Source: a virus
DNA length: 64,000 nucleotides
Virus record (IMG/VR): IMGVR_UViG_3300036766_000686
Span: 1-64,000 of that record
Direction: 5' to 3' (one strand)
In this document: positions 2,553 to 54,106 of the stretch, one piece after another
How the letters are laid out: each line of letters opens with the position of its first letter
How positions within the stretch are numbered: the first letter of the stretch is position 1
The notes under the pieces: model-generated
The model's database searches: none
Seen by the model: the letters and a program-made list of their open reading frames with translations, nothing else
What the model was told of the DNA's origin: nothing
Translations under genes and position numbers: made by a program

Positions 2553-3227
2553 TCAGGCTGGAGCGCCATCGTTATTTCCACTACTGTTTTCAGGCGGGAC
2601 CGTCCCGCCAGAAATTTCCCTGCCTCTCGTCCTCGATCTCCCCCCGTGAACGGGGGAGCGGGTGTGAGGCTTTACCTTGTCGTTGATTACTCGCTCGGCG
2701 GGGAGGGAGCGATAGATCGGGCCGGGAGTTAAGTCGAGTAACTTCTGGTCCCCGAACCGCATCAGGTGGTCGTTAAATATGTTTATCTCGTTGATAATGT
2801 ACTGGTGCAACTCCTGTCGCCCCATGCTGCGGAACGCCTCGCCGGGCACAAACCCGGTCCCCGTGTGCGAACGCTCGACAACACCCAACTCCACACCCGT
2901 TTTCAAGATATCACGAATAATCTCCGACCTCGCGCGTATCGCCGCAACGTAGGTCGGGGAGTTGGGGACTACGTTCTCCAGCACCTTATCGAGTTTATCA
3001 AGCCCTTGCCTTTGCTCGATAACGTAACGGACGTAAGTTTGCTCAACGGGACGGGTCTTGACGAGGTCGGCATCGTGTTGGATGAGCTTTTCTTTCAGTT
3101 GCTCCACGTCCTCGATCGGGAGCCCGTAGGTAGAACTCAATGCCTCGTCGTCCAAGCCTTTTATCAAGCCCGAACGGACCTTTGCCAGTAACTCCTTCGA
3201 CGCGTTCCCGTTGAGTTTCGTTCCCAT
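2553..3227 (-). CDS. Hypothetical helical protein, possible terminase small subunit
   Basis: N-terminal HTH-like segment, helical body and position shortly upstream of terL. Function is inferred from context only. Confidence 0.5.
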   Translation of the reverse strand: MGTKLNGNASKELLAKVRSGLIKGLDDEALSSTYGLPIEDVEQLKEKLIQHDADLVKTRPVEQTYVRYVIEQRQGLDKLDKVLENVVPNSPTYVAAIRARSEIIRDILKTGVELGVVERSHTGTGFVPGEAFRSMGRQELHQYIINEINIFNDHLMRFGDQKLLDLTPGPIYRSLPAERVINDKVKPHTRSPVHGGRSRTRGREISGGTVPPENSSGNNDGAPA

Positions 3228-3272: not shown

Positions 3273-4085
3273 CTAGAACCGGGTCATGAAAGGGATACGC
3301 TGCCCGAATTTCCCGCCTTCCAGACCTGGGTTTTGTTTATACCCGCTCTTTTCCAGTGTCGCATGGATGTGGGGAAACACTTCGTCAAGCGGGCTTTCCA
3401 GCGCTCCCTCTCTATTCAACACCTCAAGCAACGAATAGGTGAACGCTCCATTGGGTCGATGATTGAATAGGGCGTCGGATGCGGTTTGGTTCGATTGACA
3501 AGCGGACAGCAGGGTCACGTTAAGTTGCCCGCCGGGGACGAGCTTGCGCACGTTGACCTTTTCTTTCACCGCCACACCATTACGCCATGCGATATCGAGC
3601 GGAGGGTGTAGGGCACGCGGACGACGTACGGAAGGAGGGTCGAAGCCTCTCGACAGATCGCCCGAGTGGCACGAGTCCGAAATCCAAAGCGCTTCCACGC
3701 AAGGAGGAACAGAGGAAAAAATATCGTTGAGGTGATTATCTCGAATAAACAACCCCTCTTTCCATTGAAAGTCCACGGGGCAAATAATCTCGTCCAGCCC
3801 ATCGACCTCAGCCGATACTGGGTCGCGGGAAGCGATCTGGGCTCCGTGTCCCGAGTAGTGAAAAAGTATCCTATCCCCTGCTTTGATTCCATCGACTAGC
3901 CAGAGCAAACGGTCAAGAATCGCGCGTGTCGTTGCGCGGGCGTCGGTCAGAAGGCGAATCTCGCGCAACTCGAACCCGCAACGTCCTACCAAAAAGTTTG
4001 CCATATCCTGTACGTCGTTCACGCAACCAGCGAGCGGAGCGCCGGGATATTCGTTGATGCCTACCAGCAAGGCTCGGCTTTTCAT
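3273..4085 (-). CDS. Metacaspase / caspase-family cysteine peptidase (C14)
   Basis: ALLVGINEY...LAGCVNDV N-terminus, catalytic His in FHYSGHG, DGLDEIICPVD, catalytic Cys in SDSCHSG, and LSACQSNQTASDA...NGAFTYSL...QNP C-terminal motifs. Confidence 0.93.
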   Translation of the reverse strand: MKSRALLVGINEYPGAPLAGCVNDVQDMANFLVGRCGFELREIRLLTDARATTRAILDRLLWLVDGIKAGDRILFHYSGHGAQIASRDPVSAEVDGLDEIICPVDFQWKEGLFIRDNHLNDIFSSVPPCVEALWISDSCHSGDLSRGFDPPSVRRPRALHPPLDIAWRNGVAVKEKVNVRKLVPGGQLNVTLLSACQSNQTASDALFNHRPNGAFTYSLLEVLNREGALESPLDEVFPHIHATLEKSGYKQNPGLEGGKFGQRIPFMTRF

Positions 4086-4551: not shown

Positions 4552-4584
4552 ATAAAGAAACCCTCCCCAAGCGGTGGAGAGGGT
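4552..4584 (-). terminator. Intrinsic terminator closing the 12.0-4.8 kb operon
   Basis: Minus strand ACCCUCUCCA-CCGCU-UGGGGAGGGU followed by UUCUUUAU: a 10-bp stem with a U-rich tail. Confidence 0.7.
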
Positions 4585-4734
4585 CGCTCTTGTAGGAGTC
4601 GTTGCACTTGTAAAGCGAGAAGGTGCGTATTTCCGCCCAGCCCTATCGCACTGAGCAACGCAAGCGCCTGAAAATCTAGGCTCCTGCGGAAGCTCTAGGG
4701 TAGGTTTATGGGCGGGAATACGTCTCGAAACTGC

Positions 4735-4762
4735 TACGCGGGCCTGCCGAAGAGACTGAGAG
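4735..4762. repeat. Inverted repeat, left copy (partner at 11623-11662)
   Basis: TACGCGGGC+CTGCCGAAGAGACTGAGAG. The 19-mer is the exact reverse complement of 11623-11641 and the 9-mer of 11654-11662. Confidence 0.9.
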
Positions 4763-4813
4763 CTTTTCTTATGTGTACGAACGGTGCGCAGTTAGGTTAA
4801 CTTACTCGCTGAG

Positions 4814-5305
4814 TTACAGTCCGATCACTGTCAAGAGTTGCAACAACTTGGGATCGAAGGACTCGGGCCGCGGGGGCGAGACGTACTCTCCGTCCTGCTC
4901 ACGCTTGACGATATTCAACGCCGCCACGCGCAACTCGCTTCCCTCACTGTCCACCAACTTTCCCGCGCCGATCGCCGCGCACTCAAACCCGAGCTTGCGC
5001 AACTGCACCGCGCGCCGCTTCGCCCCGTAGGACTTTGACGTGTAAAGTTCCTGCACCGAACGCGCGAACTCCGCACGTGAAATACACACGGGGGGGTGTG
5101 ACTTGCGAGCGAAGGAATCGAGGCGTTCGTTCTGGTTGAGAACCAACCCCTTGAGGTACGCGATTTCGCATTCCGACGAACAGAAATCCGAACCTCGCCC
5201 CCGAGGAACTTCCTCTTTGCACTGTTTACAAAGTTTAATCTCTTCCTTCTCCTTGCTGTTCGTTGTCGTTGTTTCGGTTTGTTGTTTGGGTTTTCGTGTG
5301 CTCAT
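4814..5305 (-). CDS. Hypothetical protein with CxxC...FCSxxC zinc ribbon
   Basis: CKQC...FCSSEC motif, GGAGG RBS. Confidence 0.7.
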   Translation of the reverse strand: MSTRKPKQQTETTTTNSKEKEEIKLCKQCKEEVPRGRGSDFCSSECEIAYLKGLVLNQNERLDSFARKSHPPVCISRAEFARSVQELYTSKSYGAKRRAVQLRKLGFECAAIGAGKLVDSEGSELRVAALNIVKREQDGEYVSPPRPESFDPKLLQLLTVIGL

Positions 5306-5366
5306 TATTTGCCTCCTTGTTATTCGTTTTCTTGTTTCGATTGCTGTTAGGTTGTTGTTTGTCTTG

Positions 5367-6038
5367 TTATCGAAGGATCACGGCAACTTGAAAGGCGCCC
5401 CATAGTGAACCTTTTCGCGTCAAGAACCCGCGCCGCGCGAGTTCCCTTCCGATCTCCCTCAACGAACGTCCTTTATTCCTCAGTTCGATAGCGATCGCCT
5501 TAATGCGTTGCTCTCGTGTCTCGGGAACGAGCTTGCGGGACTTCGGGTCAATCGCGTACCCGTACCTCACATGCCCGCCCGTGTACTCTCCTTGCTCCCG
5601 CTTGTATCGAGCAACTCGCGCCGTGTTTTCGGAAATGTTCTCCCGTTGCCACTGCGCCACGCTGCCCAGAATGTTCAACACGAGCCTGCCTCCTGCTGTC
5701 CTCGTGTCGATCTGCTCCGCGACCGATAGCAGTTGCGCTCCTCCCTCTCCAAAGTATTCGTCTAGCAAGTCGCCCAAGTCCTTGACCGACCTCGTAAGAC
5801 GATCAAGCGCAGAAACTACGAGCGCCTGCGCTTCGCCTCGCTCCAGCACCATCAACGCCGCCTGCACCCCGTCCCGTTTCAACGTCTTAGCGCTCACGCC
5901 TTTGTCCTCAAGGATCATCACGAGTTCCAACCCGTACAGTTCCGCGTACCTCTTGATCCTATCGCGTTGAGCGTCAAGGCTCAGCCCCTTGTCGGCTTGA
6001 TCCTCGGTGCTTACCCTCACGTACCCTACCGCCTTCAT
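5367..6038 (-). CDS. Serine recombinase (resolvase/invertase catalytic domain plus short recombinase-type DNA-binding domain)
   Basis: MKAVGYVRVSTEDQ (catalytic Ser), D-x-GVSA, LDRLTRS, then GGHVRYGY...SLREIGREL...W. True start is likely ATG 6038 after GAGG. Confidence 0.92.
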   Translation of the reverse strand: MKAVGYVRVSTEDQADKGLSLDAQRDRIKRYAELYGLELVMILEDKGVSAKTLKRDGVQAALMVLERGEAQALVVSALDRLTRSVKDLGDLLDEYFGEGGAQLLSVAEQIDTRTAGGRLVLNILGSVAQWQRENISENTARVARYKREQGEYTGGHVRYGYAIDPKSRKLVPETREQRIKAIAIELRNKGRSLREIGRELARRGFLTRKGSLWGAFQVAVILR

Positions 6039-6256
6039 GTTCCTAACCTCTTTCCTTCTCGATTCAACACCGCGAGAATAAGTTGATGAAATACCGCGTC
6101 TCTGATTTCGTTGGTAGCGTCCGCTGGCCCGCAACAACCCACAGGCCATTGGATTTGGTATTGCAGGTTTTCTCGTATCGCGGAAAGACTCCAGTGACCC
6201 CAGAAGATACGAAAGCCCGCCTCAATCAATAGTTGTTCGATTCCTTGCCAGTTCAT
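6035..6256 (-). CDS. Hypothetical protein
   Basis: ATGA overlaps with neighbouring genes at both ends. Confidence 0.55.
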   Translation of the reverse strand: MNWQGIEQLLIEAGFRIFWGHWSLSAIRENLQYQIQWPVGCCGPADATNEIRDAVFHQLILAVLNREGKRLGT

Positions 6257-6447
6257 CGTGTCGCCCAATCGTAGCGCTTGGGGAAAACGCGCAGGCACGT
6301 CTTACAAGTGACCTTCGCCTTCTCTCCCGTTGTCGTGTATCGTGTCTTGTCGAGGTCGAGCATTTTTACTTGGGCGCAACACGCGGGAAAGTTGATCCCC
6401 GCGTTATTTTTCAATCGTATGTCCGTCCAGTGTGTTTTCCTTTTCAT
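6253..6447 (-). CDS. Small Cys/His protein (H...CC...CxxC)
   Basis: GGAGG RBS, VTCKTC motif. Confidence 0.6.
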   Translation of the reverse strand: MKRKTHWTDIRLKNNAGINFPACCAQVKMLDLDKTRYTTTGEKAKVTCKTCLRVFPKRYDWATR

Positions 6448-6618
6448 TGGGCCTCCTTGTTTACTTCGTTTATCTCCTTAACGCTCAACCGCTTGTGAGC
6501 TTTGCGCGTTCGCGGAGTGGTGCGCCACGTGAAAGTCATCCCGCAAGCTCGGCAGCGAAGGACTTTCCGGTTGCCTAGTTTCCCGAGCAACACCAACTCC
6601 CCACTACATATTGAACAC

Positions 6619-7008
6619 TCACGCCGGTACCGCCTTGGTCGAGTTCCCGAAACACTCGTCCTTGTGCGGGCAGGGGTTGCAGGTCATCGGACGAGGAAGA
6701 AGCCCCCGACAAGCATCCCCGCGCCCGAAGCGGAAAACGTACACCTCAAGGAAAGCGCTTGCCGCGATCGCTGCCGCGCCCGGCTCCCACGAATTGAGTA
6801 CATCAAAGAGAGCTTGAGGAACTGCCATGCCCCAGTGGACGTCCTTGTACTGCGGTTCCCATTGCTCCTTCATTCGATGAATTTCCTCCAACTCGACCGC
6901 GATCTTTTCCAGCACCTCGTCTCTTTTCTTTTCCAGCCTGTAAAGTCGTTCCGTAAGCTCACAACGCCCGACCATTGCGGACGTCGGTTTTTTGAACTGT
7001 CTTTCCAT
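6619..7008 (-). CDS. Hypothetical protein with coiled coil and Cys-rich tail
   Basis: AGGAG RBS, 129 aa. Confidence 0.6.
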   Translation of the reverse strand: MERQFKKPTSAMVGRCELTERLYRLEKKRDEVLEKIAVELEEIHRMKEQWEPQYKDVHWGMAVPQALFDVLNSWEPGAAAIAASAFLEVYVFRFGRGDACRGLLPRPMTCNPCPHKDECFGNSTKAVPA

Positions 7009-7170
7009 TGCTTGTCTCCTTTGCTTGTTGTTTACTCGCCTTATTCTTCTTGGGAAAAACCATCGCTTCGTAAATCGAGAAATTCTCGAAAGCCTGTTCC
7101 TCGTAAGTGTCGAGGGTCAGTTGTAGGTCGGCTCGCGCTTGCGTATCGCGAGGAAGGCAAAAGTAGTACC

Positions 7171-7542
7171 TCACGCGTCCACCCATCCTTTCTTGAACTT
7201 TTGCCAGCGCCCCTCGAACCATCGCGTGGCTTCTCGACACTTGGGACGGGGGATTTCAATGAGCACTACCTTGTAGGCGACCGTCTCGCTTCCGTTTCCC
7301 AGACAAGCGTCCGTCCACCCTTGCCGTTTGCTATGCACGCAATATGTCCCCGCCGTCTTGTAAATCGCTCCCGAGTCTAAGTTGATGAACTCGGGAAGCA
7401 GAGGGAGTCCGTCGAACCCGTACAGCTTCCACCAGTGCTCAATACGCTGTGGTTGAGTTTTCGAAGTGTAGGACGAGATTGCAAACAACGTCCCGTCCTC
7501 TACCTCAAGCCGATCGCTCTTGGCGTTCATGTTGGTCAACAT
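7171..7542 (-). CDS. Hypothetical protein
   Basis: ATG 7542 follows a GGAG RBS. Confidence 0.55.
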   Translation of the reverse strand: MLTNMNAKSDRLEVEDGTLFAISSYTSKTQPQRIEHWWKLYGFDGLPLLPEFINLDSGAIYKTAGTYCVHSKRQGWTDACLGNGSETVAYKVVLIEIPRPKCREATRWFEGRWQKFKKGWVDA

Positions 7543-7627
7543 TTTTTTCTCCCCGATAATCGAAGGTGAAAAAGCGCTTCCCCCGCGGCTCGCTACAAGC
7601 TCACGAGGGAAGCGCGATTTCATTTCC

Positions 7628-8827
7628 CTATTCGTTCACTAACCCCGCCTCTTTCAACCAATTGTCCCCGCCCAGCGCCTTCGTGACTTTGCGCGCCTCG
7701 GGGGTCGCCAGCCCATCAATCTTGCCCAGTAGTTTAGCAGGGCTCCAAACGATCCCAGGGCTGTTCGCGTTCGTCACGTTGTACAGCAGTTCCCACAGCT
7801 TCCGCGCCCACGCGCGTTTGACCTTCGCATCCTTCTCCGATGCGATACACGACACACAAGCGGCCAACACAGCCTGCGTCCGATCAAGTCGCGTGGAGTT
7901 GTGTTCGAACGTCACCTTCCCGTCCAACAGTTCGTAGGGGTTGGGCAAGTCTTGCGCCTCAAGCCACGCAAAGAATTCTCCCGCCATCCCGTCTCCCACG
8001 AACGAAGCAAAAAAAGCATATTGCTCCGTTTCGCTCAGTTCGTGAATGATAGACGATGCCAACGCCCGAGTCGCCATTTCAATCGAGCGCCGAGACGACC
8101 AAGCCCTTGACGCTTGCGGGTCATCGGCTTTGGGTTGCTTGTGCAGGAACTCGGGGCGGGCGCGAAGGAACCCAAGCACCTTCCCCTTGGCTTTCGTAAA
8201 CTCCTCATTCCAGAGCAACAGAACACGAGCTTCCTCAGCGTTCGCGTCCTTTACGGACACAACACGCTCCGCGAACGCGTCCACAGAGTTGAGATAGTCC
8301 GCGTATTCGTCAAGCCCGCCTGCATCGAACTCCAGATGCCCAAGTCTGTTCGCTTGCGCCATCGACAGTTCGTACCCCGCCGCCGCCTCAGCGGGGGGAT
8401 TATAGATCGCCATCACGCGAACGTTGGGTCCGAACTGGTGCGTACCAATGCGCTTGTCGAGCGAGATGCCCAACAACGCGGGCTGGAGGGCGGGGGAAGC
8501 AGTCGTAAGTTCCTCGAGCACCACGACGCCCCGCCGCCCCTTTGCGAACTTATCGACCCAGTCGGGAGCGGGGTAGGCAAGCCTGCACTTGTCTCCCTCG
8601 CCCACCGGAACGGGGACAACGCCGAACGCTCCCTCCCCACGTTCACCCGGCGATAAAACCTCACTCTCGAATCCCCACTCCTTCGCCGCTTGCACCACCT
8701 GTGCCGACTTGCTCACTCCCGGCGACCCTACCAGCGCCAGCGTCAATCCCCACCCGCGGGTTGTAGGGGTGAACCAAGATGCTTTAATGATATTTTTCAT
8801 TGACCCAGATTTTTCAGATTTACTCAT
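7628..8827 (-). CDS. MoxR-like AAA+ ATPase
   Basis: Walker A GSPGVSKS, Walker B VVVLEEL, sensor NPP, ANR arginine finger, SRRS. Start is likely ATG 8827 (AGGAG RBS). Adjacent to a vWA gene. Confidence 0.85.
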   Translation of the reverse strand: MSKSEKSGSMKNIIKASWFTPTTRGWGLTLALVGSPGVSKSAQVVQAAKEWGFESEVLSPGERGEGAFGVVPVPVGEGDKCRLAYPAPDWVDKFAKGRRGVVVLEELTTASPALQPALLGISLDKRIGTHQFGPNVRVMAIYNPPAEAAAGYELSMAQANRLGHLEFDAGGLDEYADYLNSVDAFAERVVSVKDANAEEARVLLLWNEEFTKAKGKVLGFLRARPEFLHKQPKADDPQASRAWSSRRSIEMATRALASSIIHELSETEQYAFFASFVGDGMAGEFFAWLEAQDLPNPYELLDGKVTFEHNSTRLDRTQAVLAACVSCIASEKDAKVKRAWARKLWELLYNVTNANSPGIVWSPAKLLGKIDGLATPEARKVTKALGGDNWLKEAGLVNE

Positions 8828-8867
8828 TTTATGCTCCTGCTTGTTTGCTTGTTTCGAACACTGACCT

Positions 8868-10187
8868 TTACTTATCGACCTCGATGAACTCACCCCACGG
8901 CGCGGGGTGTTGTCTATACGTGCCCACCAGAACCCATATCGTCTGAATCCCGGCAGGCGACTTGTAGGGAGCGCTCCCGCACCCGTCCGTGATGTAAACC
9001 ACGATGGACGGACGCGAGGAACGCGGCATCTTGTCGATTGCTTCGAAGGCGGGAATAAAGCTCGTCCCGCCTCCACCTTTGAGTAACGGCAACAACTCGC
9101 GGACGGACTTGACGCGTTGACACGTTTGTACCGCCGCGTCCGCTGCCATGAAGGTCACGTCGGCGCCCACAGCTTTGAGAATCCCCGAGCTTTCGGAAAC
9201 GACCTGCCCAATCTCGCGCTTGCCCATTGACATTGACGTGTCTGCCACTATCAACGTCTTGGGCACGGGCGCGAAGTAGGCAGGCATGACCCCTACTCCC
9301 AACCCATACCCGATTCCCGCTTGACGTCGTGAGGGACGATGGAACGACGTATCGACCGCGCCCGCTTTCCTCGCAACGTACAAGCGACAGAGGCGAGCCA
9401 ACCTGGATTGCCAGTTCACAGTCGGGGGAGCAAGTTGAACCTCAGCCCAACGTGCCCACCCGCCCGCAACGCTACCCGCGCCTTTGCTCGCCACTTCGTC
9501 TCGTATCGCTTGCGCGACCTGCTTGCGTACCGATTCAATCTGCGCCTTCGAAACGCCGCCGCCCGCCTGAGCCTCTGCCTCAGCTTCGCCCGGCAACTCA
9601 TTACCCGCCGCTGACCCACAGTGCCCCGCACAAGGGCGAGGGGCTGAGGAGTCTTGACCCTCCCCCTGTCCTTCGCTCCCTTGCGCGTTGCTCGATTGCG
9701 ATTGCCCGTCCTCGCTTTGCTTGTCGCTCGATTGCGAGCCCTCGCCTTTGCTTTGTTCGTCTTGCTGCTCCTGTTGCTTCGCCTTGCGCCTCGAATGATA
9801 CTCCTCAGCGGTGAGCCCCACGGGGAGCCCATACTGAGCGGGCATCAGGACGCCTTCGGGCAACTCTGCGCCCATCGCCAATATATCGGGGTTAATCTCT
9901 AGGTCGGCATCAATGTTGAAATCCTTACCCGCTCCAATCGCCTTCGCCCTATCGAAGTGCCCGCGCAACGGATGAGATACCTCGTGTAACAACACACCGA
10001 CCAACTTACCTGTTTCCCATTCGTCAACGACCTTCGGGTCTACCATCAGCACCCAGTTTTTTGTAACCCCAATCGTGCCGAGTCCGGGGGTCTCGACAGT
10101 GCGCAACGTTACGACCGCCGCCCGAAAGTATTTCCACCTTCGGAATATTCGCAACTGAGCGGCGCTCAGTTTAGCTTGCCAGTGCAT
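8868..10187 (-). CDS. HExxH metallopeptidase-vWA protein (DUF2201-like)
   Basis: LLHEVSH...H, NIDADLEIN, a Q/S/E low-complexity linker, MIDAS-like DTSMSM, GGGGTSF and ITDG. Confidence 0.88.
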   Translation of the reverse strand: MHWQAKLSAAQLRIFRRWKYFRAAVVTLRTVETPGLGTIGVTKNWVLMVDPKVVDEWETGKLVGVLLHEVSHPLRGHFDRAKAIGAGKDFNIDADLEINPDILAMGAELPEGVLMPAQYGLPVGLTAEEYHSRRKAKQQEQQDEQSKGEGSQSSDKQSEDGQSQSSNAQGSEGQGEGQDSSAPRPCAGHCGSAAGNELPGEAEAEAQAGGGVSKAQIESVRKQVAQAIRDEVASKGAGSVAGGWARWAEVQLAPPTVNWQSRLARLCRLYVARKAGAVDTSFHRPSRRQAGIGYGLGVGVMPAYFAPVPKTLIVADTSMSMGKREIGQVVSESSGILKAVGADVTFMAADAAVQTCQRVKSVRELLPLLKGGGGTSFIPAFEAIDKMPRSSRPSIVVYITDGCGSAPYKSPAGIQTIWVLVGTYRQHPAPWGEFIEVDK

Positions 10188-10188
10188 C

Positions 10189-11070
10189 TTAGTCCTCCTC
10201 GGCGTTCTCCAGCAGAATTGCCGACGTGATATCCGCGTCCAGTTCGTTCAACGCTGTTTGGATTTTCGGAAGTTGTTGCTTGAACAGTTCCTCGTAATGT
10301 CGAACTTTAGAGCGGACACCCTTCGAACGCTTCCCCTGACCTCTCAGCCCGCGCTCCGTGATCTTGTCGTTGTTTTCAAGCTGACCTCGCATCAACTCGA
10401 TTTCCCGCTCCGCTTCGTAGATTACCGAGTCCATTACCGCCTCGACGATATCCGACGAGGACGCGGCGGGGACGTGGTAAATCTTGCAACACTTTACTTC
10501 CTTTATCGCCTCGCAGTATTGCCTCCACTGTGCCCGATGGGTACGCGGAACGAAGTAAAACCCACCCGTGTCGCGCCCCGATACCGCCGCGCACTTCTTA
10601 ACCGCCAAGTCGATCCAGAGCCACGAGCTAAGGCGCTCCGAAGGCAGCGTGTCCAAGTGGTTCTCGTACCCCTCGCGGATCCGTCTCTCGTAGTCCCACG
10701 AGTGGATTCCCTCGACCTGCAACGTGCCTCCCTCGATACGAGCCTGTACCAACTCTCGATACTTCAAGTTGCCCACAAGCTCAGTCTCCTCGACGATCGC
10801 ATACCCGTCCTTTTTCAGAGGTCGGACGAGGACATGTTTCTTTTGGAACTCCTCAAGCGCAAGTCGCAACGCGCGCAACTTGGTGGGCGGGGGGGGGAGC
10901 AACTTGTCGTCCAGCCCGTGCTTGCTCCACGCACCTATGATGGTGGGCAACTTCGCATCTTGCAAGTTGGACAGGTAGGTCATTTCCCCCGCCAGTTTCG
11001 ATTCCTCCACCGCGATCCACGATCCCGATTGAATCGCTACGGCTTCAACTAAAGTCTTTGGGGTATTCAT
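10189..11070 (-). CDS. Hypothetical protein of the type usually found beside MoxR/vWA pairs (DUF3150/DUF6744-like)
   Basis: GGFYFVP motif, helical C-terminus, gene context. Confidence 0.6.
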   Translation of the reverse strand: MNTPKTLVEAVAIQSGSWIAVEESKLAGEMTYLSNLQDAKLPTIIGAWSKHGLDDKLLPPPPTKLRALRLALEEFQKKHVLVRPLKKDGYAIVEETELVGNLKYRELVQARIEGGTLQVEGIHSWDYERRIREGYENHLDTLPSERLSSWLWIDLAVKKCAAVSGRDTGGFYFVPRTHRAQWRQYCEAIKEVKCCKIYHVPAASSSDIVEAVMDSVIYEAEREIELMRGQLENNDKITERGLRGQGKRSKGVRSKVRHYEELFKQQLPKIQTALNELDADITSAILLENAEED

Positions 11071-11117
11071 TGATTTTTCTCCTTATTGTTTCGTTTATTC
11101 GTTCTATTCGTTTTGGG

Positions 11118-11423
11118 TTACTTGCTCAGTTTTTTGCACAGTTTGATTATTGCTACGTTCGCTCGTATCGCTTCGAGGAGTTGAGACGCCAACTCCGTCG
11201 CCTCCGTGTCGGTCCACCAATCCCCGTGCCTGCCCGCTACAGCAACGAGCGACAGATAGAGGAGTTCCACTGCCCCCTCGCACTGTCGCGCCGTGGCGTA
11301 ACAGAACCCGCCCCGTTGCGTTTGGCGCTGGGAACGGAGTTTGTCCATCTCTCTCCTTGCCTTGCTCAAAAGGTCGTCGGCTTCGGATAATGAGTCAAAA
11401 GGACTCGTTCCTACTTTTTCCAT
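11118..11423 (-). CDS. Hypothetical protein, first gene of the operon
   Basis: AGGAGG RBS, 101 aa. Confidence 0.65.
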   Translation of the reverse strand: MEKVGTSPFDSLSEADDLLSKARREMDKLRSQRQTQRGGFCYATARQCEGAVELLYLSLVAVAGRHGDWWTDTEATELASQLLEAIRANVAIIKLCKKLSK

Positions 11424-12040
11424 TTACCTTACCTCCTTGTTTGTTGTTTACACGTTCTATTCGTTGCTTGTTGTGTGGAGCCCTACACGCTCCCAACGAT
11501 AGACGAACGCCGTCCCGAACACCCTCAGGCGCTCTCGTGTTCGTTCGTCTATCTGTGGGAGCGGGGGAAATACGTCGTTACTTCTTGAACGTATCTCCCA
11601 CCGCTCTACCTATATTTTCTATCTCTCAGTCTCTTCGGCAGTTCTATTCAACTGCCCGCGTATTCGCTCACCATCATTCATTCGCCTCCAGTCGTCACGT
11701 TTTCATGGCGTCTTCCTTGCCTTGTCCGCTACGTCGATTCAACTGCGCTTGTCGCTTTGTGCCTTGTTCAGACTCGCGTTGTGCGATTGATGCAATCTCA
11801 CGCACCGCCTTCCTCGACGTTTTCACGCGTGGGCAATGCCTTCGCTCGTTTCTTTCAGCGTTGACTTGAACGGGGAACGCTCAGCTGGCTATCTCAGGTC
11901 GCCACCCTCCTCGCTCTTAGTCACCTCACCCGCGATCCCTCAGAATCTTTGGTCCCTCGCAACGCCGTTTTCCCGTTGCCCCGAACTGGGCGCGTCCGAC
12001 TAAGTGCAACAACTCATTTCAAACAGCAATCACTATCTAT
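11424..12040 (-). ncRNA. Candidate long structured 5' leader RNA
   Basis: No credible ORF. Multiple stems, e.g. 11488-11509 pairing with 11542-11563, 11564-11574 with 11589-11599, GGCAGTT/AACTGCC, GTGCG/CGCAC and AGCGTT/AACGCT. Confidence 0.5.
11623..11662. repeat. Inverted repeat, right copy (with a 12-nt insertion)
   Basis: CTCTCAGTCTCTTCGGCAG-TTCTATTCAACT-GCCCGCGTA is the reverse complement of 4735-4762 apart from the 12-nt insert. Confidence 0.9.
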
Positions 12041-12074
12041 TGATAAGAGTGAAGCCTTAGGAATCTAGCGTCAA
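12017..12074 (-). promoter_or_regulatory. Putative sigma70 promoter followed by a boxA-like element
   Basis: TTGACG (12074-12069), 17-nt spacer, weak -10 CACTCT, then TGCTGTTTGAAA (12028-12017). Confidence 0.4.
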
Positions 12075-12896
12075 GAAAATAACACAACTATTTTCACGCT
12101 TGTAAGTCCCCGCTTTCCCTCACTATTTCGCGCCTTTTTGCGAGCACCGTCACAGAATAACGATAATTACCCGAATCCCCACGAAATCCGCACCTTTTAT
12201 GCCCACTCTCCCCCCTCCTCACACCCACCCCCAGCTTCAATACGTCGTTTAGTCTCGCTCACTCACCCCACTACACCCATAAATCCCCCCTCTTTTCTCC
12301 TCTCTCATGCAAATTTTCAATTTTTTTATCGCTCTCCCCCCGCTCTCTCACCCCATCCCGCTCCCCTGCCCATCACTTTTTCCCTCGCCCACGTCACGTC
12401 GTAAATCGCGTGGAGGACAGTCAGTGCATAAAAACAAAGTGAAAAACTACAATATCCTACACTGCCCCCTATCGTCATTCCGTCAACGCGCGAACGCTCG
12501 TTGACGCGCAATTGGTCGGGATATTGCGAGAAAAATCGCTACTTTTCAATGTTCAAGTGATTATTTCGAAGCTCAGCAAGTCGAGACAAGTACAGCAATC
12601 AAGGGACTGGAGGGAAACCACGAGAATCCTTCCGTGGTCCTGCGGGAGGTGAGCGCCCTCCCCGCGTCGCCCTCCCTCGTGACGGTGTTTGTTGGTATTC
12701 GTTCGTTATTGATTACTGGGAACCCCTCCCTGTCGCCCGCTCTCGTGATAGCGCTTATTCTCTTTGTTCACGCTCTGCTTGATTCCAGTGCATACCCTTC
12801 TTGTGTCGCTCTCTCTCGTGAAGGTGTTTGTTTGTATTCGTTCGATTGATGTGGGTATACTTACGTTATCGCTATATTTGGATGGTGGGGGGGATA

Positions 12897-38194: not shown

Positions 38195-39581
38195 CTATTG
38201 CCTCCAGTTCCTTTAGGATTGCTTGTTGCTCTAGGTTTATCTCGCCTATTCTACCTTGAGCCTTCGAACGTTCCTGCATCCGCTTCCCCCTGAGCCACCA
38301 GCGGTTCAGGTTCTTTTCAAACATCTGGATAGGGTGCCCTGCTTTCCTAAGCCATTCATCGTCCCGCGTTGACCAATACCCGAACGCTGCCCACGTTACA
38401 ACGTCGTAGGCGCTTATCCCTTCGTCCTTCGCTACCATCGACGCCCACTTGGGAATCGAGGACAAAGTTCGCTCGTGAGAAGGAACCAACGAGTAGCGTC
38501 CCGCCTCTGCTTTTTTCATGCCTTCATCAATCGCGCCTACAACCTCATCAATCGAAATCGTGCCGTTCCTGCGCTTGAAGGCACAAGCAGGCTCAAGGAT
38601 TCGCGCAGAAGCTACGGCGTGTATAGACGGGAAAGGTTGGGGGGTGTTGTTGTGGGACTCAGCATACGCAAACACGACCTCGGGGGTAATGCCCGCTTCC
38701 AAGCAACTCACTCCGATCTTGAAACAAGCATCCCTCCAAGTCCCCGTGCCCTTGAGGAACTTCTCCCCAGTGCGCTTCCCGCGTATCGCAACGTAAAGCC
38801 GGAACACTTCGTCCTCGAGGACTTTCCTCACCCGAGACGTTTCCTCGGCCTCGCTCACCCCGCTCGCCTGCAGTTGCGCAAGCAACGAGGCGCGCCCTGC
38901 TGTGTCGAGTCCGAAAAGTTCGGAGCAGGCGGGAGCGAAGTTTTCGACGACCCTGACCAGCTTGCCTTCCCTGCTGGCGTTGCGCTTTGCTGTGCCCGTT
39001 CCTTGGGTTCGCTTGGTAGCTCGCGGTTGAGGTTTGTCAAACTCGCTTACGCTCGTTTGTATGTTCGCTTTTGAATTTAGATTCTTAACTCTTAAATTCT
39101 TAACTCTTAAATTCTTAACTCTTAAATTCTCTTTACTTGCTAACGCAAGTAAGGGGGGCGCGTGACGGTCTGTGACGGCATCGTCACACTTCGTCACATG
39201 ACCCTCCTCGCCTTGCTCTTTGTGACGGCCTGTGACGGCATCGTCACACTTCGTCACACCGTTCACCACTGGGGTTCGTTTTGTGCGCCATCGTTGCGTT
39301 CGTTCCGCTCCAGACAGGGGCGGCGGTTCAACTTTCAAAGCTCGTGTCCTCGAGGTTAACAATTCGCCCAGTTCGATGCACTCCTTCAACCCTATCTCCA
39401 CAATTTCTTTCGGTAAGCTCGTGAAATATTCCACCACTTCGTTCAGGCTTTTATTCTCAATATTCGCGTGATTTTTTGCTGTTTTGATTAACGTGGCTAT
39501 CAATGCTTGGGCTTCCCAACTCAGTAAAATATTCCCCGCCGCCTCGTCTTTGAGGCGAACGTGTTGAGGAGCGTCACTCAT
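38052..39581 (-). CDS. Putative replication initiator (N-terminal wHTH, internal iteron-like repeats)
   Basis: LSWEAQALI...LKECIELGEL HTH-like segment, AERTQRWR, and repeats VTKCDDAVT and KNLRV x3, typical of lambda O-like proteins. Confidence 0.6.
   Translation of the reverse strand: MSDAPQHVRLKDEAAGNILLSWEAQALIATLIKTAKNHANIENKSLNEVVEYFTSLPKEIVEIGLKECIELGELLTSRTRALKVEPPPLSGAERTQRWRTKRTPVVNGVTKCDDAVTGRHKEQGEEGHVTKCDDAVTDRHAPPLLALASKENLRVKNLRVKNLRVKNLNSKANIQTSVSEFDKPQPRATKRTQGTGTAKRNASREGKLVRVVENFAPACSELFGLDTAGRASLLAQLQASGVSEAEETSRVRKVLEDEVFRLYVAIRGKRTGEKFLKGTGTWRDACFKIGVSCLEAGITPEVVFAYAESHNNTPQPFPSIHAVASARILEPACAFKRRNGTISIDEVVGAIDEGMKKAEAGRYSLVPSHERTLSSIPKWASMVAKDEGISAYDVVTWAAFGYWSTRDDEWLRKAGHPIQMFEKNLNRWWLRGKRMQERSKAQGRIGEINLEQQAILKELEAIDDGERRKGSERVNKLRGRLIECRRTAKDLERTMEDNFADGRRKDEVA
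39081..39258. repeat. AT-rich 15-mer x3 plus two 38-bp palindromic TGTGACG/CGTCACA blocks (candidate origin)
   Basis: ATTCTTAACTCTTAA at 39081, 39096 and 39111. GTGACGGYCTGTGACGGCATCGTCACACTTCGTCACA at 39162 and 39222. Confidence 0.85.
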
Positions 39582-53773: not shown

Positions 53774-54103
53774 CTAATCGAGCGGACAAGGTGGGAGTTG
53801 TGGAAGGGAAGGTAAAGCAGGGAAAGGGGGGATAAGAGGGGGGACAGGCGGGAAGGGGATACCTGGAATCGGAGGTAGGGGGATAGCAACTTCAAACGAA
53901 GGCAATTGTGGAAGGGAAGGTAAAGCAGGGAACGCAGGAAGGGGGATAGGCGGGAAGGGGATATCTGGAATCGGCGGTAGGGGGATAGCAACTTCAAACG
54001 AAGGCAATTGTGGAAGGGAAGGTAAAGCAGGGAAAGGGGGGATAAGAGGGGGGACAGGCGGGAAAGGGATACCTGGAATCGGCGGTAGGATACATTTCGA
54101 CAC
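53774..54103 (-). CDS. Proline-rich tandem-repeat protein (MSKC...CPLD)
   Basis: Three ~38-40-aa repeats of LPPIPGIPFPPVPPLIPPFPALPSLPQLPS. GAGG RBS. Confidence 0.65.
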   Translation of the reverse strand: MSKCILPPIPGIPFPPVPPLIPPFPALPSLPQLPSFEVAIPLPPIPDIPFPPIPLPAFPALPSLPQLPSFEVAIPLPPIPGIPFPPVPPLIPPFPALPSLPQLPPCPLD

Positions 54104-54106
54104 ATA

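Follow-up and report, generated by a model that had tools for sequence, protein, structure and literature searches.

The window, a 64,000-nt stretch of viral DNA (positions 1 to 64,000 of IMG/VR record IMGVR_UViG_3300036766_000686), contains a block of genes that is bracketed by two complementary, inverted sequence arms (Table 1). All genes are on the minus strand, and both arms would therefore be transcribed in the same sense. The block is accessory and probably early, and from its sequence we infer a single operon, read as one ~7.5-kb mRNA. Four small ORFs are present in addition to the recombinase, g163 and the other genes listed. At the DNA level, the block had no match among cultured phages.

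Table 1. Coordinates of the bracketed block, its genes, the two arms and the neighboring leader, trailer and upstream elements (positions in the window).
Feature	Positions	Strand	Description
Gene-poor stretch	11424–12896	-	1.47 kb; largest of the genome without convincing gene; upstream of block
Leader mini-ORFs (possible)	11648–11689	-	GGAGG Shine-Dalgarno at 11689-11685
Right (leader) arm	11623–11662	-	9-mer 11662-11654, insert 11653-11642, 19-mer 11641-11623; 200 nt upstream of first start codon
Hairpin A	11637–11656	-	7-N6-7 palindrome GGCAGTT/AACTGCC; 5 nt from 19-mer and 3 nt from 9-mer
Leader hairpin B	11561–11604	-	Stem from two GGRRATACGY motifs: 11566-11575 (+), 11589-11598 (-)
Leader hairpin C	11488–11563	-	22-nt arms, 91% complementary
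Bracketed gene block	4814–11423	-	Ten or so genes; first ORF starts at 11423, last stops at 4814
g101	11118–11423	-	First ORF of block
DUF6744	10189–11070	-	In block
DUF2201 metallopeptidase/VWA	8868–10187	-	In block
MoxR-like ATPase	7628–8827	-	In block
Small serine recombinase	5367–6038	-	223 aa from M38; LSR-like catalytic domain and short C-terminal DNA-binding part
g163	4814–5305	-	Zinc finger C-x2-C-x12-C-x3-C, long helix, alpha/beta domain
Left (trailer) arm	4735–4762	-	Minus strand: 19-mer complement, then 9-mer complement; 51 nt downstream of g163 stop
Trailer long hairpin	4625–4723	-	Stem from two further GGRRATACGY motifs: 4625-4634 (-), 4714-4723 (+)
Intrinsic-terminator-like hairpin	4559–4585	-	11 pairs, then T-run; downstream of trailer arm

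The description of the repeat in the earlier note was confirmed throughout. Sequence reading together with a repeat search identified 4744-4762 (CTGCCGAAGAGACTGAGAG) as the exact reverse complement of 11623-11641 (19 nt), and sequence reading gave the same relation between 4735-4743 (TACGCGGGC) and 11654-11662 (9 nt). Gapped local alignment of the two arms returns these 9 + 19 matched bases and a 12-nt gap, with no match beyond, and extra complementarity in the arm flanks is not significant (p = 0.13 and 0.8). The 12-nt insert at 11642-11653 is present in the right copy only, where it completes the palindrome GGCAGTT-N6-AACTGCC at 11637-11656, a sequence occurring once in the window. Both arms are non-coding, as had been claimed: one precedes the first gene by 200 nt, and the other follows the last stop codon (4814) and precedes the intrinsic terminator-like hairpin.

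The 19-mer has only 2 copies in the window at up to 3 mismatches (0.03 expected), and no third copy turned up at up to 2 mismatches when all 91,710 bp of the genome were scanned. No other exact inverted repeat of the phage genome (91.7 kb) is as long, the runners-up having 17 nt. When all intergenic-region pairs of the whole genome were compared, the arm pair was the sole outlier, and arrays of gene-by-gene helices were absent. The exact 19-mer had no match in an IMG/VR pattern scan, and its eight matches in metagenomes are all unrelated to the phage by their flanks and by blastn; pattern scans of both collections revealed no related junctions. Three possible origins of the repeat were rejected, namely descent from a duplicated coding sequence (the encoded peptides have nothing in common outside the repeat) and, judged by eye, a CRISPR-repeat-like origin (the left copy is without the hairpin) and a tRNA-derived one (no tRNA-like sequence).

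The leader fold is unusually structured (z = -5.7), and none of 200 shuffles folds as well. Hairpin B includes one G-U pair, which forms in minus-strand RNA only. The motif GGRRATACGY, found in the stems of hairpin B and of the trailer hairpin, has six occurrences in the genome, four of them clustered beside the arms. Two mini-ORFs are possible in the leader: that from ATG 11677 has 9 codons and its stop within the hairpin A loop, and that from ATG 11681 has 20 codons, stops at 11619 and covers the entire leader arm. Chance occurrence of the mini-ORFs, at a low probability, is plausible. An AAGGAGG is located at ~11437-11431, and a near copy of the 12-nt insert (GCAGTTGAAT-GA) is found 91 nt upstream.

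The gene-poor stretch holds three tandem 66-73-nt units (12657-12844) and G-rich tracts. It also includes a weak boxA-like GCTGTTTGAAA at 12027-12017, in the sense orientation; the degenerate pattern, which was shaped after the site was seen, has 2 matches in the genome against ~1 expected. Only one weak sigma-70-like site was found, ~900 nt upstream of the leader arm, and no convincing recurrent promoter emerged when TTGAAT, TTGACR-N-TAnnnT and GCAACGAA were tried and all intergenic regions were read. Rfam families are absent from the leader, trailer and upstream region, the lone weak match being rnk_leader (E 0.14) over the terminator.

A serine recombinase had been reported between the arms. 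The enzyme was identified (Resolvase domain, E 1.7e-35), and its most likely start is at 6038, not at 6149. Among PDB entries it matches the catalytic domain of TP901-1 integrase best, followed by Gin and gamma-delta resolvase, and it is a member of the large-serine-recombinase clade, not of the Hin/Gin clade. In the family alignment, the columns of the catalytic Ser and Arg do not vary, and the enzyme is apparently active. It belongs to a conserved 223-aa gene family positioned upstream of the packaging genes. Phage serine recombinases of ~225 aa are a very common, uncharacterised family. The possibility of a truncated large serine recombinase was rejected, as homologues of 220-245 aa, in the hundreds, can be aligned over their full length. 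The suggestion that g163 supplies a zinc ribbon to an integrase split into two genes found no support, with no Pfam, PDB-sequence or fold match to recombinase zinc domains, and with g163 present at only 5 of 80 homologous recombinase loci. In five related loci, g163 follows the recombinase and precedes the packaging genes.

The relatives compared include two complete genomes (G001 and G002) and three fragments (L087, L095 and L105). None of the five syntenic relatives has a significant bracketing repeat around the orthologous recombinase, or an analogous leader-trailer complementarity. No relative was found that keeps the non-coding arm regions and could show covariation. The recombinase and g163 are syntenic core genes in G001 and G002, and the rest of the block is variable. 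The right arm falls within a 6-21 kb region without homologue in these two genomes, the left arm in a moron slot between g163 and g224, and the positions of the repeat do not match synteny breakpoints. Apart from an ATPase fragment (P0002, 93% identical, on a 2.2-kb contig), the most similar proteins share 51-55% identity. Searches of viral, metagenome and genome collections with recombinase, ATPase, metacaspase and DUF6744 queries gave no closer relatives, with none beyond 26-55% identity.

The preferred reading, which is held tentatively, is that both arms may act as RNA, with pairing of the two ends of the message; all results computed here are compatible with it. The minus-strand transcript(s) of the block would carry both arms outside the translated regions, and the leader arm (9 + 19 nt, with the 12-nt interruption) and the 3'-UTR arm would form a 28-bp helix. 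The predicted energy of the arm duplex is -56.4 kcal/mol, and folding leader and trailer together is 44 kcal/mol more favourable than folding them separately. The 19-mer arm is mostly unpaired in both single folds, and could thus nucleate pairing. The two arms of a single long mRNA might pair with each other, or a stable 3'-UTR fragment might pair with leaders that are newly made, and a 28-bp helix would have sufficient length for an RNase III-type substrate or for clamping the message ends. The insert would let hairpin A, possibly assisted by ribosomes on the mini-ORF, compete with the long-range helix, forming a switch. In line with the argument of the earlier note that the insert suits RNA better than a DNA site, it is harmless as a bulge and awkward for one protein site; in addition, the inverted orientation is required for RNA pairing and not for a protein-binding site. 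We infer that the leader arm is transcribed and the helix formed in vivo, and the same applies to any processing or regulatory outcome.

A more specific version of the RNA reading, and a more doubtful one, is that of a ten-gene, 6.9-kb early operon laid out like an rRNA precursor, in which the 28-bp helix would be cut by, or protect against, host RNases. The hairpin and mini-ORF would decide on its formation, and the whole would serve as a timer or stabiliser of early expression. Several observations count against RNA pairing in either version. No transcription start was located upstream of the leader arm, and the five syntenic relatives have no analogous complementarity. No obvious translational effect of the leader arm is expected because it is 200 nt from the ribosome-binding site. 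To our knowledge, no established precedent exists for two arms pairing when 6.9 kb of translated polycistronic mRNA lies between them. The predicted helix has no G-U pairs and no mismatches in its 28 bp, and the perfect, sharp-edged identity of the arms looks more like a DNA copy than a long-evolved helix.

Perfect identity, sharp borders, one clean indel and non-complementary flanks are consistent with a DNA-level relic without dedicated function, i.e., a 28-40-nt non-coding piece of which an inverted copy arose recently through template switching or mosaic-module recombination, and which survives only since both copies landed in non-coding DNA. Both arms are in regions varying between relatives, and the related genomes are without such a repeat. 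Such an origin is on the unlikely side, yet to be taken seriously: no mechanism readily copies 28-40 nt inverted to a place 6.9 kb away, and the 19-mer, being absent elsewhere in IMG/VR and found in metagenomes only in unrelated contexts, is not a known portable motif. Chance is also unlikely to place arms exactly at both ends of a terminator-bounded block, beside structured RNA-like elements sharing GGRRATACGY stems. The clustering of this motif beside the arms, and the near copy of the insert, would fit DNA sites at the head and tail of the block for a sequence-specific protein (phage regulator, accessory or partition-like factor), which might loop the DNA. Since the 12-bp insert amounts to about one turn of the helix, the 9-mer and 19-mer would remain on roughly the same DNA face. 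In related phage loci, long inverted repeats consist of promoter-operator or ribosome-binding regions that occur in duplicate, one on each strand, but this explanation, the same element serving divergent genes, is inapplicable here because all genes are on one strand. Protein sites are considered rather unlikely, as an asymmetric site of 28 bp would make a long operator, just two copies exist in the genome, and none of the genes of the block was identified as a DNA-binding regulator.

Phages Mu and P1 are known to carry invertible segments. The earlier note had proposed, as an alternative, that the arms are crossover sites of the enclosed serine recombinase, making 4763-11622 (6.9 kb) invertible; a flip would uncouple the block from upstream transcription. 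The part of this proposal that stands is the arrangement, with inverted arms enclosing an apparently active recombinase that has conserved catalytic residues (a 6.9-kb interval contains one by chance at ~7.5%). The arms are perfectly identical, as are sites kept alike by recombination, and at one other phage locus (L156) a 47%-identical recombinase homologue is enclosed by a perfect inverted repeat of 26 nt, with copies 7.6 kb apart. Phage invertible segments have been described, including those of cyanophages (10.64898/2026.02.14.705889). The proposal is weakened by the sites themselves: a dyad scan found no shared dyad axis, the left copy reaching at most 7/14, which is background, and the 7-N6-7 palindrome being in the right copy only, and a 12-bp indel within the putative site separates the copies. 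The segment is without alternative gene ends, and the sole fusion created by inversion is antisense junk. The clade of the enzyme, its conservation as a lineage gene upstream of the packaging genes with no bracketing repeat in any of the five relatives, and the lack of coincidence between repeat and synteny breakpoints also argue against inversion, which is regarded as improbable. A transposon-like mobile cassette (4735-11662), with the arms as its terminal inverted repeats, would similarly account for inverted repeats at both ends of a block with a resolvase-family protein. This reading is close to refuted, since the block has no transposase and no target-site duplication (flanks ACTGC and TTCGC), and was not gained or lost as a unit, the recombinase and g163 being core genes and the rest variable.

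If the pairing is real, the rRNA-style closed loop and the rare bacterial 5'-3' UTR pairing would be extended to a long polycistronic phage mRNA, and a simple, testable mechanism would be available for timing or stabilising early phage transcripts. If the arms form an inversion switch, they would represent a new site type for the ~225-aa recombinases. At present the repeat is unconserved and comes from a single uncultured genome, and it is of value as a well-defined experimental target, not as a result.

Among known systems, Hin/hix, Gin/gix (Mu) and Cin/cix (P1) likewise combine a serine recombinase with short inverted repeats flanking a phage segment of a few kb. They differ from the present locus, which has no dyad-symmetric sites, no tail-fibre or alternative gene ends, an indel between the copies, and a recombinase of another clade whose position is conserved independently of the repeat. 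In the immunity RNAs of phages P1 (c4) and P4 (CI), an RNA derived from one portion of a phage operon base-pairs with a separate, non-overlapping portion of the same transcript; the complementarity is short and bipartite, and the outcome is translation block or termination. The complementarity between separate parts of one phage block is bipartite here too, but the P1 and P4 targets are a few hundred nt away, whereas the arms are 6.9 kb apart. Anabaena cyanophages have an invertible region of ~30 kb, bounded by inverted repeats as is the present segment; both isomers were detected by PCR and in reads (10.64898/2026.02.14.705889). Their repeats are of 400-700 nt and position-conserved across relatives, whereas that described here is of 28 nt and lineage-specific.

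The closest parallels to the RNA reading are in bacterial transcripts. In icaR of Staphylococcus aureus, a 3'-UTR segment is complementary to the 5' UTR of the same mRNA, and the pair is a regulatory RNase III substrate (PMC3868564). In the present case, a putative 3'-UTR segment is likewise complementary to the putative 5' UTR. In icaR, the 3' UTR covers the Shine-Dalgarno of a monocistronic ~1-kb mRNA, whereas the trailer arm here does not pair with the Shine-Dalgarno region, the leader arm (11623-11662) being ~190 nt upstream of the AAGGAGG and 200 nt upstream of the ribosome-binding site. In bacterial rRNA operons, a leader-trailer helix of >17 bp is the functional unit (PMC10250234). Unlike in rRNA operons, the unit consists of about ten protein-coding genes (6.9 kb) and not of a stable RNA, the weak boxA-like motif is 365 nt upstream of the helix instead of 18-19 nt from it, and the pairing is perfect, without an imperfect extension. 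The likeness is in the layout: as in the rRNA helices (PMC10250234), complementary arms on the same strand flank the unit, the predicted helix (19 + 9 bp) exceeds 17 bp, local leader helices interrupt it, and the leader is structured.

The inverted repeat is real and non-random, and its structure is as the earlier note had described it: 4744–4762 is the exact reverse complement of 11623–11641 (19 nt) and 4735–4743 that of 11654–11662 (9 nt), and the 12-nt insert (11642–11653) is confined to the right copy, where it completes a 7-N6-7 palindrome (hairpin A, 11637–11656). The gene layout likewise places both arms in untranslated DNA, one in a leader and the other between the last gene of the bracketed block and a terminator-like hairpin. 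Two copies occur in the window at up to three mismatches, versus 0.03 expected, and the whole genome has no third. The repeat is the longest exact inverted repeat of the genome (runners-up 17 nt) and the sole outlier in a pairwise comparison of all intergenic regions. Similarity of the two copies ends exactly at the borders of the 9-mer and 19-mer, the flanks of the arms have no significant complementarity, and exact-match searches gave no support for a portable motif. The length of the indel, 12 nt, is divisible by three, and each copy falls within an open frame, with codon phase shared between them. The insert (11643–11655) has a near copy 91 nt upstream, at 11734–11746 (GCAGTTGAAT-GA on the minus strand).

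The window covers the first 64 kb of a 91,710-bp IMG/VR contig. This contig comes from a myovirus-like phage and carries tail sheath, tape measure, DnaE and SbcCD-like genes; about 175 bp are shared by its two ends (1–175 versus 91536–91710). The 'linear' record therefore represents a complete assembly that is circularly permuted; a divergent patch within the overlap (113–140) is possibly strain variation. All convincing genes are on the minus strand. The exact-repeat listing also contains about three tandem 102–108-nt units in a C-rich stretch (window 53798–54106) and periodic repeats of 15 and 60 nt (39081–39244).

Features around the two arms, in minus-strand order
Feature	Position	Strand	Remark
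Gene-poor stretch	12896-11424	-	1.47 kb, without convincing gene; largest such in the genome
Three tandem 66-73-nt units	12657-12844		Inside gene-poor stretch
Palindrome, 12-bp stem	12481-12506		Inside gene-poor stretch
Weak boxA-like GCTGTTTGAAA	12027-12017		Inside gene-poor stretch
Leader arm	11662-11623	-	Within gene-poor stretch
Two more strong leader hairpins	11604-11561, 11563-11488	-	3' of leader arm
First gene of block	start 11423	-	Strong Shine-Dalgarno before start
Trailer arm	4762-4735	-	51 nt past end of g163
Trailer long hairpin	4723-4625	-	3' of trailer arm
Terminator-like hairpin and T-run	4585-4559	-	After trailer long hairpin
GGRRATACGY sites	4625-4634, 4714-4723, 11566-11575, 11589-11598		Beside arms

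Possible identities of the gene-poor stretch, which also has long G-rich tracts, are an origin, an early promoter region and a set of non-coding RNA genes. The leader folds far better than shuffled sequences (z = -5.7) and the trailer moderately better (z = -2.6). The 10-nt GGRRATACGY builds the stems of both a leader and a trailer hairpin, and the mRNA-sense order of arm, short spacer and hairpin with a GGRRATACGY stem is common to both regions; four of its six genomic occurrences fall within 110 nt of the arms, a descriptive count, as the pattern was drawn up after the sites were seen. On the minus strand of 11619–11689, two overlapping mini-ORFs lie downstream of a GGAGG Shine-Dalgarno and extend into the leader arm: the shorter, of 9 codons, stops in the loop of hairpin A, and the longer, of 20 codons, covers the whole arm. 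These could be due to chance.

The block has ten ORFs, the last two being the recombinase (6038–5367) and g163 (5305–4814), a zinc-finger protein gene. Its other products include a DUF6744 protein, a DUF2201 metallopeptidase/VWA protein, a MoxR-like ATPase and several small ORFs of no known kind. The ATPase trio (7628–11070) occurs widely in phages as a module whose gene order varies (loci L004–L034). The recombinase, listed as a 260-aa ORF (5367–6149), most likely starts at M38 (6038) and has 223 aa, since homologues of 220–245 aa can be aligned over their full length and this ATG has a ribosome-binding site in front of it; the full-length matches also led to rejection of the idea of a truncated integrase. 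Its family, small serine recombinases of phages, is very common, with at least 597 IMG/VR pattern matches and a relative encoded at 580 of those listed. Catalytic residues are conserved in the family, whose catalytic domain most resembles those of TP901-1 and CcrB-type large serine recombinases, with a short C-terminal part added.

No close relative was found in any collection searched. Distant syntenic relatives comprise two complete genomes, G001 (91.6 kb, 68% GC) and G002 (98 kb, 41% GC), and three fragments. They share the order of replication genes, variable region, recombinase and g163, then variable inserts, g224, two small genes, large terminase, portal and MuF; the recombinase and g163 are thus conserved genes of the lineage, located ahead of the packaging genes and surrounded by variable 'moron' slots in relatives ranging from 41 to 68% GC. 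This pattern covers window 5367–6149, 4814–5305 and 2553–3227 and loci L087, L091, L095, L103 and L105. Nothing in G001 or G002 corresponds to the whole of about 6.2–20.7 kb of the genome, where the ATPase trio lies together with the leader arm and the 1.47-kb non-coding region, and the trio is missing from both. The trailer arm, the terminator and a holin-like/metacaspase pair occupy a second variable slot, from g163 to g224. With its arms in two separate variable regions, the repeat is not the border of a gain/loss unit. No inverted repeat comparable to this one is present in either complete genome, and in none of five syntenic loci is the post-g163 region complementary to anything upstream of the recombinase. 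Long inverted repeats in other related loci are duplicated ribosome-binding or promoter-operator regions for opposite-strand genes, an explanation ruled out here because all genes are on one strand. In relatives with the ATPase trio (loci L012, L018, L011), inverted repeats of 19–21 nt represent either duplications of a ribosome-binding/start region or a promoter that serves divergent genes and contains a palindromic operator (TTGACA ... TAGCCAATGGCTA ... TATACT).

Pairing of leader and trailer RNA, in cis or in trans, is the reading tentatively preferred. Both arms lie in untranslated parts of same-sense transcription, the 3' arm just ahead of the terminator; a very high stability is predicted for the 28-bp helix (-56 kcal/mol, co-fold gain 44 kcal/mol), and the indel is tolerable as a bulge, which can form hairpin A instead. 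Against it, the promoter search placed none, and the complementarity is perfect with abrupt edges, as in a DNA copy. A recent DNA relic without function, left by neutral copying, is possible, if somewhat doubtful. A protein-binding site is rather unlikely, and transposon ends are so improbable as to be close to refuted. Any probability left over from these readings and from inversion was assigned to other explanations.

Inversion of the block at the arms, also proposed in the earlier note, is improbable. The note was right that a serine recombinase is enclosed, which by chance would occur in only ~7.5% of cases, and a repeat around a recombinase homologue exists in L156; the arms, however, do not have the dyad symmetry typical of serine-recombinase sites, have a 12-bp difference inside the site, and enclose a recombinase of conserved position whose orthologues are without the repeat. 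This conservation of position and the orthologues without the repeat suggest a role for the enzyme other than inversion at the arms, and in relatives this may be cyclisation, resolution or integration. L156, an unrelated phage contig (67% GC), has a perfect 26-nt inverted repeat (3636–3661 and 11266–11291), its copies 7.6 kb apart, enclosing a 47%-identical recombinase homologue and overlapping the stop codons of two opposite-strand ORFs; a real inversion system is more plausible there than at the present repeat.

For leader-trailer pairing, to our knowledge, there is no established precedent over a 6.9-kb span of translated genes. Bacteria are known to have 5'-3' UTR pairing that involves RNase III (PMC3868564), and the 28-bp helix predicted here exceeds the 17 bp needed by the rRNA leader-trailer helix (PMC10250234).
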